A stretch of DNA of 64,000 nucleotides from Shigella phage ESh15. A program made the position numbers and the translations under genes. This document shows, piece after piece, positions 42,695 to 59,280 of this stretch. The first letter of the stretch is position 1, and the number at the start of each line of letters is the position of its first letter. The notes below the pieces were generated by a model. It was given only the letters and a program-made list of their open reading frames with translations, searched no databases and was not told the DNA's origin. The DNA lies in the sequence record ON528725; one strand, given 5' to 3'.

Positions 42695-42735
42695 TTTATT
42701 CTCCAGATGTTTAAGTTGTTTGTTGGTACAGGTCT

Positions 42736-42764
42736 ATAATAACATAACCTGTACCAAAGTAAAC
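42736..42764 (-). promoter_or_regulatory. Early-type promoter GTTTAC-N17-TATTAT flanked by an 8-bp inverted repeat
   Basis: Minus-strand GTTTACtttggtacaggttatgtTATTATagacctgtacc; inverted repeat GGTACAGG/CCTGTACC brackets the -10. Confidence 0.5.
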
Positions 42765-46367: not shown

Positions 46368-46604
46368 TTATAGTGTTCCATATACTCGAGTTGCTTCAAC
46401 AAGACCATCACTGCCTAATTTAAGATTAGTAATTTGGTCACCATCTTTAGGATTAACGATTATGAGAAAAGAACGTGGAGATTCTTGAATAACTCGTAAT
46501 GTTGCATCCTGGAAACGTTCAGACACTTTATTGATGAGTGCTTGAGCAAATTCTTTTACTTTAATCTGAAATTCGTGTACTGTAATTGGATTTTCACTTA
46601 GCAT
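46368..46604 (-). CDS. Hypothetical protein
   Basis: 78-aa ORF with GAGGAA RBS and early-type promoter upstream. Confidence 0.6.
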   Translation of the reverse strand: MLSENPITVHEFQIKVKEFAQALINKVSERFQDATLRVIQESPRSFLIIVNPKDGDQITNLKLGSDGLVEATRVYGTL

Positions 46605-46632
46605 TTCGATTTCCTCATTTGTTGGTAGAGTT

Positions 46633-46662
46633 ATAGTACCACAACTCCACCATGTTGTAAAC
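46633..46662 (-). promoter_or_regulatory. Early-type promoter GTTTAC-N18-TACTAT
   Basis: Minus-strand GTTTACaacatggtggagttgtggTACTATaact. Confidence 0.5.
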
Positions 46663-48430: not shown

Positions 48431-48431
<1 letters not shown>

Positions 48432-48730
48432 TATTTTATTCCTAAGAAAGCTTCAAGAATACGAATGTTATGTTCGCGCCGGTCTTTATTAATTTCAGCA
48501 ACGTTTTTATTAATTGACGTGCTTCTAACGTTTGAAGAAATAAATTTAATCATATGACTTTTGAGTTGTTGCAAATCCAACCCTTTTTCTTTAGCCGCTT
48601 TACGAAGAGCTTTACCTGCTTCATCTAGTGCCTTTGCAGCATCTTTGTCATAATTGTCGAGTGACATTCCATGGCAGATATCAATATACTCATCAGAACG
48701 TTTGATGTAATTCTCTAGTAATGTTTTCAT
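48431..48730 (-). CDS. Hypothetical protein
   Basis: 99-aa ORF. Confidence 0.55.
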
Positions 48731-48787
48731 TTAGATTTCCTCAATTATCCATAGGAGCATTATACTCTGCTCCCGAGAGTTTGTAAA

Positions 48788-49012
48788 CTATTTTACTAAA
48801 GATTCAATATACTCATGAAGAGCTTTAGTCGCTACTGCCCATTTGTTTTGGTATTCATTTTTCAGATTAGCACGAGACTGAACTAACAAGCGGTCATTAG
48901 TCGGAGGCAAAGATTCTAATCGTTGAATCTGGCGCCCATAAATCATAGCCGCCATTTCAGATTCATAGATAAGCCCTTTAATGTATTCATACTGTTCTTT
49001 AGTCATTGGCAT
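48788..49012 (-). CDS. Hypothetical protein
   Basis: 74-aa ORF. Confidence 0.55.
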   Translation of the reverse strand: MPMTKEQYEYIKGLIYESEMAAMIYGRQIQRLESLPPTNDRLLVQSRANLKNEYQNKWAVATKALHEYIESLVK

Positions 49013-55645: not shown

Positions 55646-57341
<1,696 letters not shown>

Positions 57342-57351
57342 TTTATTCTCC

Positions 57352-57420
57352 TTAACAAGCTTTAATCAAAAGATATAAACAAACTAACATAACCACTGCC
57401 ATAATATAAGGTGCTAACAT
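57352..57420 (-). CDS. Candidate 22-aa hydrophobic micropeptide
   Basis: ATG with GAGGAA RBS 6 nt upstream; product MLAPYIMAVVMLVCLYLLIKAC; stop sits just upstream of the next gene's RBS. Confidence 0.35.
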   Translation of the reverse strand: MLAPYIMAVVMLVCLYLLIKAC

Positions 57421-57481
57421 TTTGATTTCCTCTCATTTGTTTTGATAGGACTACTATAACATAGCCCTATCTTGTTGTATA

Positions 57482-57871
57482 CTACTTTTTAAAAGTTTTT
57501 TGCAAAAGTTCGATGATTTCGTCGACGTTAGTTTCATCTACTACACAATGAATTTTTGTTACACCTAAAACTATGCCTTCGTTAACCGGTTGAGGCTTTT
57601 CTAAAGTTACCTCGTTGAAGTATTTGAATTCTTCAGGGTAAAGTTCAAAATATGTCTCTTCCGGACCACCAGCAGAACATTCTGTGCCATCTTCCATGGT
57701 TACACATACTACGTTTAGGCATCCATCATAATCATGTTCCATTCCATTTACAACAAAACTTGGACCATGCTTCTCAAGCAAATCTAGCATAAAGCCGTTA
57801 TTGTACGGGGCCTCTTCGATGAATTCATCTTTAAATAAAGGGTTAAAGATATAAGTTTTTCCGATTTCCAT
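57482..57871 (-). CDS. Hypothetical protein, paralogue A (position of T4 frd.2/frd.3)
   Basis: 129 aa; shares GKTYI.NP, LDL.E.HGPSFVV, YFELY..EFK.F.EV with the adjacent 120-aa ORF. Confidence 0.7.
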   Translation of the reverse strand: MEIGKTYIFNPLFKDEFIEEAPYNNGFMLDLLEKHGPSFVVNGMEHDYDGCLNVVCVTMEDGTECSAGGPEETYFELYPEEFKYFNEVTLEKPQPVNEGIVLGVTKIHCVVDETNVDEIIELLQKTFKK

Positions 57872-57900
57872 TTTGATTTCCTCGTTTGTTGATTAATAAA

Positions 57901-58263
57901 TTATTTTATTCCAAAAATTTCTTTAATTTCTGCAATCACATCTCGAGCATTTTCTACAGTAACTTCAAAGATGAGTGACTGTTTAGAAATAGACTCTGGA
58001 GATACCTCGATGAAGTGTTTGAACTCATCATCGTAAAGCTCAAAATATGAACCTGGAGGACCATCAAAACCAAATTCAGTACCGTCTTGCATAGTTACGC
58101 TGGTTACGCATTTATCATCATCGTACTCAGTGTTCATGTCCTTTACAACAAAACTAGGACCATGGAGCTCAATCAAATCCAACATATCAGCATTTTGTGG
58201 GCATTCATTGGCAAATGCAGCTTTACATTCTGGATTGATGATGTACGTTTTTCCAATTTTCAT
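57901..58263 (-). CDS. Hypothetical protein, paralogue B (tandem duplicate of 57482-57871)
   Basis: 120 aa; colinear similarity to the neighbouring ORF; own early-type promoter and RBS. Confidence 0.7.
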   Translation of the reverse strand: MKIGKTYIINPECKAAFANECPQNADMLDLIELHGPSFVVKDMNTEYDDDKCVTSVTMQDGTEFGFDGPPGSYFELYDDEFKHFIEVSPESISKQSLIFEVTVENARDVIAEIKEIFGIK

Positions 58264-58344: not shown

Positions 58345-58371
58345 TACTCAAAAGGGAGACCGAAGTCTCCC
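58345..58371 (-). terminator. Rho-independent terminator after gene 32 (minus strand)
   Basis: Minus-strand GGGAGAC-TTCG-GTCTCCC followed by TTTTGAG; third copy of the same hairpin. Confidence 0.8.
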
Positions 58372-58377
58372 GATTTA

Positions 58378-59280
58378 TTATAGACCGGCTAACAGGTCAT
58401 CGAGGTCACCATCATCAGAGGATGAGGTAGAGCTCATGAAGTCATCTTCAGTTTTTGCAGAGCTAAAGGCTTCCATGTCTTTATCAAAATCGTCAAGGTC
58501 AGAAGCAACTTTATCTGCAACAGAAGCTGCTGCGGCTGCTGCACCACCAAGAGCGGCAGTACCAAGAACCTTAGCGAAAGATTCATTTAATTTTTCAAAG
58601 GATTTGAACTGGTCTTTAGCCGTCAAAGTAGTAAGGTCTACCATCTGGTCATATAGTTCTTTCTGGAATGCTTCGTCATTAATACGAGGAATTTCAGATT
58701 GACCCAAGAATTTAGATTCGTCATAGTTGCTAAAACCGGAAACCTGCTTAGCTTTCAGAACGAAGTTAGCACCTTCAAACGGACAAGTAACATCAACTGG
58801 AGTTTCACCCATTTCGGTATCAACTGCAATCATTGCATTGATTTTGTCCCAAATCTTTTTACCGAAACGATATTTAAATACTTTACCTTCGTTATCTGGA
58901 GCTTGAGGGTCTTTAACAACCAGAATATTAGCCCAATAAGAAGTTTTACGTTTCAGTTGAGAATATTCAGTTTTGTTTGTATTGTACAGGTCATTTTTAC
59001 TAATGTACTGACATACAGGACAAGAGTCGTAATCACCATGTGTAGAAGAGCAATTTTCAATATACCATTTACCATTTTTCTTGAAACCGTGGTTAACAAG
59101 AATTGCAAATGGTAGTGCATCATCAGTTTTTGCTGGCAAGAAACGAATTACCGCTTGACCATTACCTGATGCATCTAGCTTCAGCTTCCATTCGCCTTTA
59201 TCTTCTGAAGAGAAACCTTTGTTACCGTTCAGTTTAGCCATTTGAGCAGCGAGGTCAGCAGTAGATTTACGTTTAAACAT
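58378..59280 (-). CDS. 32: gp32 single-stranded DNA-binding protein
   Basis: 300 aa vs T4 301 aa; near-identical to recalled T4 gp32; acidic C-terminal tail. Confidence 0.97.

Follow-up and report, generated by a model that had tools for sequence, protein, structure and literature searches.

A conserved 22-codon reading frame carried by a promoter-early stem-loop unit in T-even-type phages, a candidate early gene for a membrane micropeptide

Gene neighbourhood and initiation region of the mini-ORF

The stretch of DNA analysed in this study (hereafter the window) comprises 64,000 nucleotides of Shigella phage ESh15 (ON528725). A mini-ORF of 22 sense codons was identified at the junction of the frd.2-like and frd.1-like genes (Table 1), with its ATG at 57420-57418 and its TAA at 57354-57352, where the minus strand reads GAGGAA-ATCAAA-ATG TTA GCA ... 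GCT TGT TAA-GGAGAATAAA-ATG. The original prediction, made from the letters of the window alone, had described this ORF, the spacing of its Shine-Dalgarno (SD) sequence and the contact between its stop codon and the ribosome-binding site (RBS) of the next gene, all of which are borne out by the coordinates, and the strand, which it had left out, is the minus strand. The TAAGGAG junction with the next gene is also found in the copies of T4 and of Dhakavirus described below.

Table 1. Positions in the window of the mini-ORF, its signals and the neighbouring genes
Feature	Position	Strand	Remark
Mini-ORF, 22 codons + TAA, MLAPYIMAVVMLVCLYLLIKAC	57352-57420	-	Kept in 200 phage records; selection tests
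Shine-Dalgarno GAGGAA of the mini-ORF	57427-57432	-	6-nt spacer ATCAAA to ATG
Shine-Dalgarno AAGGAG of the downstream frd.1-like gene	57348-57353	-	Overlaps the TAA of the mini-ORF
-10-like hexamer TATAGT, extended -10 TG	57453-57458	-	Within loop and 3' arm of the stem-loop
-35-like hexamer TATACA, PeSL-type early sigma-70 promoter	57476-57481	-	Promoter scan
PeSL stem-loop, 11-bp stem, 6-nt loop (GATAGGGCTAT GTTATA GTAGTCCTATC)	57444-57471	-	Folding
frd.1-like gene, 82 aa, DUF5417	57093-57341	-	ATG at 57341; DUF5417 is the RefSeq family of T4 frd.1 homologues
frd.2-like gene, 129 aa, FRD2 family PF03197	57482-57871	-	Upstream of the mini-ORF
Second FRD2-family gene	57901-58263	-	Family match
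td	55646-56506	-	T-even-type gene order
frd	56503-57090	-	T-even-type gene order
gp32	58378-59280	-	T-even-type gene order

Several features of the neighbouring genes deserve mention in their own right. Two tandem FRD2-family paralogues lie between gp32 and the mini-ORF, the counterpart place in T4 being held by frd.3 and frd.2, and the FRD2-type genes seem differently arranged in one IMG/VR relative (L007). The td gene is a single uninterrupted ORF of 286 aa and overlaps frd by 4 nt (56503-56506); the td CDS of T4 consists of two joined pieces (intron-containing), and td of Shigella phage ESh15 thus appears to be intron-less. Immediately 3' of the gp32 stop (58378), a strong terminator-like hairpin was found on the minus strand at 58354-58371 (GGGAGACTTCGGTCTCCC followed by TTTTGAG).

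Other ways of reading the same letters were also considered. An overlapping 24-aa ORF (57362-57436) was rejected because its relative frame differs in T4 and it has no SD, and the opposite strand across the mini-ORF holds no ORF of at least 20 aa. Fusion with frd.1, by read-through or frameshift, was rejected as well, since the next ATG is offset by 79 nt in the window and in T4 and by 80 nt in Dhakavirus. A by-eye check for a MotA-box middle promoter inside the mini-ORF found none with correct spacing.

The claim that the ORF has its own RBS is well supported by the sequences at gene starts elsewhere in the window. The 15 nt of the mini-ORF initiation region (57418-57432), GAGGAAATCAAAATG, recur unchanged at the start of the frd.2-like gene (57869-57883) and, with at most one mismatch, at those of four further ORFs, namely frd, the second FRD2-family gene, a 78-aa ORF and a 99-aa ORF. 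Allowing two mismatches, six matches were found in the window, all six with no more than one mismatch, versus 0.36 expected, and each of the five besides the mini-ORF marks the beginning of an ORF no shorter than 78 aa. In the T4 and Dhakavirus copies GGAG stands 7-8 nt from the ATG, and the mRNA around the mini-ORF is less structured than its shuffles (z +1.0 to +2.6). On the other hand, an SD followed by an ATG-initiated ORF of at least 22 codons occurs in about 1.0-1.3% of random 140-mers of matched composition. Because the genome has many intergenic gaps, each with a chance of about 1%, the observation in a single sequence is not significant, and the significance of the mini-ORF comes from comparative evidence only.

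Distribution, conservation and predicted product

A tblastn search with the peptide returned one full-length match (22/22) per record in 200 phage records, with 73-95% identity. In T4 the copy runs from 146083 to 146018 (to 146015 with the stop codon), between frd.2 (146143-146529) and frd.1 (145762-146004), and the reference genome annotation of T4 does not include it. The sole annotated copy is ACG-C40_0237a of phage ACG-C40 (AFH20202.1 / YP_006986794.1), a "hypothetical protein", and no other version occurs in a collection of about 15 billion proteins. At the nucleotide level, a 171-nt stretch around the mini-ORF matches Tequatrovirus genomes (T4, T6, RB32, ACG-C40, PST and others) at 85-87%. 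Mosigvirus is closest to the flanking genes (~89% nt); there only ~60 nt separate the frd.2-like from the frd.1-like gene, and the mini-ORF is missing, a clean absence of ~80 nt. Conservation of the reading frame in relatives had been put forward as a check of the original prediction and its loss in close relatives as a refutation; the 22/22 alignment holds in all 200 records that contain the region, and Mosigvirus lacks the ORF cleanly with no decayed frame left behind.

Distant homologues were sought with degenerate DNA patterns. The true copies obtained in this way were two from IMG/VR and two from metagenome contigs, one contig being counted in both, and scans of metagenomes and species genomes with PYIM...C[LF]Y[LF] recovered two true copies only (L053 and L078). 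Most matches of the pattern scans were due to chance, MFAPYIM for instance also matching inside unrelated larger proteins, and no bacterial or archaeal copy was found by these scans in 185,579 species genomes. This sparse yield indicates that the family is narrow and has no detectable host homologue. The mini-ORF family is limited to about 200 closely related coliphage genomes, a narrow spread that fits a young gene of possibly marginal importance.

To describe how the reading frame has evolved, the copies in the window and in 17 fetched loci were read, giving ten distinct nucleotide haplotypes (two of the loci, L009 and L025, are one IMG/VR contig). The ATG, the 22 codons, the TAA and an SD at 6-8 nt are kept in all ten with zero indels, while the non-coding stem-loop region beside the mini-ORF does carry indels among those genomes. 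Among nine haplotypes, 11 of the 18 variable sites are at third, five at first and two at second codon positions (hypergeometric P=0.004). The Nei-Gojobori (NG86) dN/dS of the mini-ORF is 0.05-0.24; against T4 it is 0.11, compared with 0.09 for frd.1, 0.22 for frd.2 and 0.27 for frd. When the substitutions were placed by Monte-Carlo simulation, the probability of as few or fewer amino-acid differences than observed was 0.0002-0.026, and jointly with the absence of stops and with all replacements being hydrophobic it ranged from <1e-4 to 6e-3. Fifteen of the 22 residues are invariant (M1, A3, P4, Y5, I6, M7, V10, C14, L15, Y16, L17, L18, I19, K20 and C22), and the replacements are mainly swaps among A, V, I, L, M and F, the exceptions being a Thr inside the helix in MN04 and a Thr at position 21 in RB32. 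With 18 variable sites and three deep lineages, the effective divergence is low, and these selection statistics therefore draw on few events. As judged from the substitution patterns, the peptide sequence itself, beyond the open frame, is shown to be under purifying selection.

Residues 2-19 of the peptide are uncharged and are followed by Lys-Ala/Thr-Cys. The GRAVY value is 2.2 in the window and 2.0-2.3 across copies, and the summed Hessa insertion energy, calculated position-independently over the best 19 residues, is negative. The product is therefore consistent with one predicted transmembrane helix, and the single transmembrane helix of the original prediction fits this hydropathy. A lipoprotein signal consists of a positive n-region and a lipobox [LVI][ASTVI][GAS]C followed by the mature protein; this possibility was rejected, as residues 1-19 include neither K nor R, the C-terminus is IKAC with Lys at -2, and no mature part follows. 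Digestion with trypsin would give a hydrophobic fragment of 20 residues, which would explain why standard proteomics misses the peptide. Searches of Pfam, NCBIfam and PDB sequences gave no curated-family match for the peptide, the best match in PHROGs had E=0.14, and nothing was found in the literature searched on its translation, membrane location or phenotype.

The stem-loop unit upstream and its mobility

Upstream of the mini-ORF, the window carries a putative sigma-70 promoter in which TATACA and TATAGT are separated by 17 nt, with TG before the -10 (57481-57453). Each hexamer is one mismatch from the consensus of the PeSLs (promoter-early stem-loops) of phages PST and T4, TTTACW-N17-TAYWAT (PMC4122927), and promoter-like matches in the stretch are not above chance (6 found vs 5.0 expected). 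The -35 place reads GTTTAC or GTATAC in all relatives, in T4 GTTTAC...GATACTAT. The stem-loop spanning the -10 has a folding energy of -16.0 kcal/mol versus -5.3±2.0 for shuffles (z=-5.4). A hairpin of 11-14 bp occurs at the same place in 12 of 12 relatives with different stem sequences, at -15.6 to -24 kcal/mol when each was folded separately. A MAFFT alignment of the 12 PeSLs does not bring the stems into register, and RNAalifold accordingly found no consensus pairs in it. The relatives have a common plan in which GTTTAC or GTATAC is followed by a hairpin spanning the -10 and then by SD and ATG.

Three more PeSL-like units were found on the minus strand of the window, at 48728-48788, 46602-46662 and about 42705-42764, each with GTTTAC and a hairpin of 7-13 bp across a TATAAT-like -10. 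The first and the second unit both close with the initiation region GAGGAAATCnAAATG, which belongs to the 99-aa ORF (48431-48730) and the 78-aa ORF (46368-46604), respectively. An antisense sigma-70-like match (57376-57405, plus strand; TAAACA-18-CATAAT with TG), readable in T4 too, belongs to the class of matches found at chance level (6 vs 5.0).

PeSLs of RB49 and phi1 have been shown by experiment to have both promoter and terminator activity (PMC2839356). In the supplements of a dual RNA-seq study of T4, both same-strand genes flanking the mini-ORF are classed as early RNA (PMC9697503). The omics gene list of that study passes from T4p240 (frd.1) to T4p241 (frd.2) and skips the mini-ORF, which, to judge from this list, was thus not interrogated there. 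The promoter-like sequence, and also the T4 flanking-gene data, suggest that the mini-ORF is transcribed early.

The mini-ORF also occurs away from frd. Three Dhakaviruses (Esco_phi_B-01, UP19 and MN04) carry it as MFAPYIMI[A/T]VIVICLYLLIKAC between a motB-like gene and cef, where homology to the window and T4 is restricted to ~165 nt, which extend between the upstream gene's stop codon and the downstream gene's ATG and take in the PeSL, the mini-ORF itself and the SD that follows. Two unrelated junctions thus harbour the unit: Tequatrovirus and the window have it at frd.2|frd.1, the three Dhakaviruses at motB|cef. JS98, JS10, IME281 and other Dhakaviruses have the motB|cef junction without the mini-ORF, the matched span being about 90 nt shorter. 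At both loci the indel boundaries lie inside a repeated SD-spacer-ATG (GGAGAATAAAATG-like). Comparison of these junctions shows the mini-ORF to be the sole cargo of a PeSL unit of ~165 nt that, as read from the alignments, has been inserted or deleted at both places and exchanged between lineages. Compared with its T4 counterpart, the mini-ORF of the window shows a dS of 0.38 and 91% amino-acid identity, versus a dS of 1.4-2.3 and 44-79% identity for the flanking genes, which indicates that the cassette was exchanged more recently than the flanks diverged and points to recent exchange of the cassette between phage lineages.

The ancestry of the region is mosaic: the flanks (56503-57871) are closest to Mosigvirus (~89% nt) and far from T4, the segment 57352-57481 is Tequatrovirus-like, and the PeSL of the window resembles the Dhakavirus copy (ACAACAAGATAGGG...). 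Among the carriers, cef does not open with the same codons: UP19 and MN04 have MTTKIT... and Esco_phi_B-01 MAKVAV..., and the non-carrier JS98 shares MAKV with the latter (JS98, NC_010105 5683-6390, locus L114; UP19, L112; Esco_phi_B-01, L046). This comparison suggests that recombination breakpoints may reach into the start of the downstream cef.

The unit resembles the PeSL cassettes described in T4-type phages (Arbiol et al. 2010, PMC2839356; Comeau et al. 2014, PMC4122927) in its AT-rich tract, its sigma-70-like early promoter, the stem-loop overlapping the -10, and the SD and start that follow, as well as in lying in a plastic early region with clean indels between relatives and breakpoints between the -10 and the ATG. 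It differs in that its cargo is a 22-codon ORF, far below the ORFans described, and in that it consists of one PeSL and a repeated SD-spacer-ATG, without a second full PeSL. Measured promoter and terminator activity, and mini-circle formation, are on record only for the PeSLs of RB49 and phi1 (PMC2839356).

Proposed role and alternative explanations

We consider it reasonably probable that the mini-ORF is a genuine early accessory gene encoding a single-pass membrane micropeptide of T-even-type phages. Host sigma-70 RNA polymerase would start at the PeSL promoter ~25 nt upstream, to judge from the promoter sequence and the data on the T4 flanking genes, and read-through from frd.2 could be a further source of transcript. 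Ribosomes would bind GAGGAAATCAAAATG, where the signals are present, and make the 22-residue peptide. By its hydropathy, the peptide is predicted to enter the inner membrane as one helix of about residues 2-19, and the positive-inside rule would place Lys20-Ala-Cys22 at the cytoplasmic face (N-out/C-in). There it may, by analogy with other small membrane proteins, bind or modulate a host or phage membrane protein and so give a non-essential, host-dependent advantage; action on host membrane proteins, as the original prediction had it, is conjecture. The PeSL unit with the mini-ORF has been gained or lost at the two junctions, with breakpoints within the repeated SD-spacer-ATG. It is rather unlikely that the cassette-borne peptide is a determinant of host range or counter-defence, for example as an antagonist of a membrane-anchored abortive-infection or exclusion system, or as a regulator that re-tunes a host inner-membrane protease or transporter.

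E. coli has small single-pass inner-membrane regulators, such as AcrZ, KdpF, MgrB, MgtS and CydX (see also 10.1101/511675). The mini-ORF peptide is like them in having fewer than 50 residues, one hydrophobic helix and its own SD, in having been missed by annotation, and in its proposed mode of action, binding to a larger membrane protein; it differs in having no sequence similarity to them, in being phage-encoded, and in its length of 22 aa, shorter than all five. Annotated T4 ORFs range from 26 to 1,289 aa (Table 1 of PMC4122927). The smallest of the annotated T4 genes likewise are very short early ORFs in a non-essential region with a canonical T4 initiation region, and the mini-ORF, at 22 aa, is shorter than the smallest of them (26 aa).

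Alternatively, the peptide might act like a type I toxin, depolarising or permeabilising the host membrane for host shut-off or exclusion, with no specific target to modulate. Its 22 residues are almost wholly hydrophobic (GRAVY 2.2), and the host envelope is a frequent target of early phage genes. The Ibs peptides, type I toxins of 19 aa, are similar in size and extreme hydrophobicity. They differ from the mini-ORF, which lies among the early genes of a lytic phage and conserves Pro, Tyr and Cys at certain positions, and for which no antisense-RNA partner was found. Nor is an antitoxin evident; the only promoter-like match in antisense orientation (57376-57405, plus strand) is not above chance, and early depolarisation would oppose the energy-dependent early steps of T-even infection. 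Moreover, the invariant P4, Y5, C14, Y16, K20 and C22 suggest a specific interaction over bulk hydrophobicity, and we regard a toxin-like action as unlikely.

It could also be argued that the mini-ORF is a coupling uORF, where ribosomes that end at its TAA load onto the next gene or unmask it and the peptide is a by-product. The overlap of stop and SD in TAAGGAG is present in all three lineages, and codons 16-19 can form a small hairpin with the SD downstream. However, at -1.3 to -4.8 kcal/mol this hairpin has little stability, and it varies among haplotypes; the downstream genes themselves carry strong SDs, and relatives without the mini-ORF serve the same genes directly from the PeSL initiation region. 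The mini-ORF travels, besides, with different downstream genes (frd.1 and cef), and coupling leaves unexplained the dN/dS of 0.05-0.24, the mostly hydrophobic replacements and the 15 invariant residues. Coupling thus seems quite improbable as the reason for the reading frame. Unmasking of the RBS by a strong hairpin was rejected, as the structure is too weak.

A more sceptical explanation is that the mini-ORF is not a gene, being a chance frame in an AT-rich spacer kept for promoter, terminator or recombination signals. Such a frame has a chance of about 1% per 140-nt spacer, T-rich codons yield hydrophobic residues, nearly all annotations, the T4 reference included, are blank there, and the adjoining PeSL is conserved non-coding DNA. 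Constraint at the DNA level, however, predicts neither the third-position bias (P=0.004) nor the low dN/dS nor the conservative replacements. The copies have zero indels versus the indels in the adjoining PeSL, and the RNA is less structured than random. Nor is the overlapping alternative ORF conserved, its frame shifting between the window and T4, and the opposite strand has no ORF of at least 20 aa; on this evidence we hold a chance frame to be very unlikely. A leader or arrest peptide acting in the ribosome tunnel in the manner of ErmCL or TnaC, and controlling the downstream gene by a small molecule or by translation status, would suit the length of 22 aa (within the known range), the position directly upstream of a cistron and the conserved sequence, but is scarcely credible given that there is no stable alternative RNA structure beyond the SD-pairing hairpin of -1.3 to -4.8 kcal/mol, that the downstream cistron differs between contexts, and that the interval to the next gene contains neither a terminator nor an attenuator.

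Small hydrophobic micropeptides of phages and bacteria and PeSL cassettes are kinds of element already known; what is new is the mini-ORF family, which has been annotated once. Its restricted distribution and still putative role limit its wider impact for now. Few viruses have been annotated as thoroughly as T4, yet the conserved ORF at 146083 to 146015 is missing from its reference annotation, and the presence of this homologue makes a direct test possible in the standard T4/E. coli system. More generally, the cut-offs of 30-60 aa used by phage gene callers hide selected genes. If translated, the mini-ORF would encode the shortest protein of T4-type phages, 22 aa versus 26 aa for the smallest annotated ORF, and would be a minimal example of PeSL cargo, a promoter with a single micropeptide.
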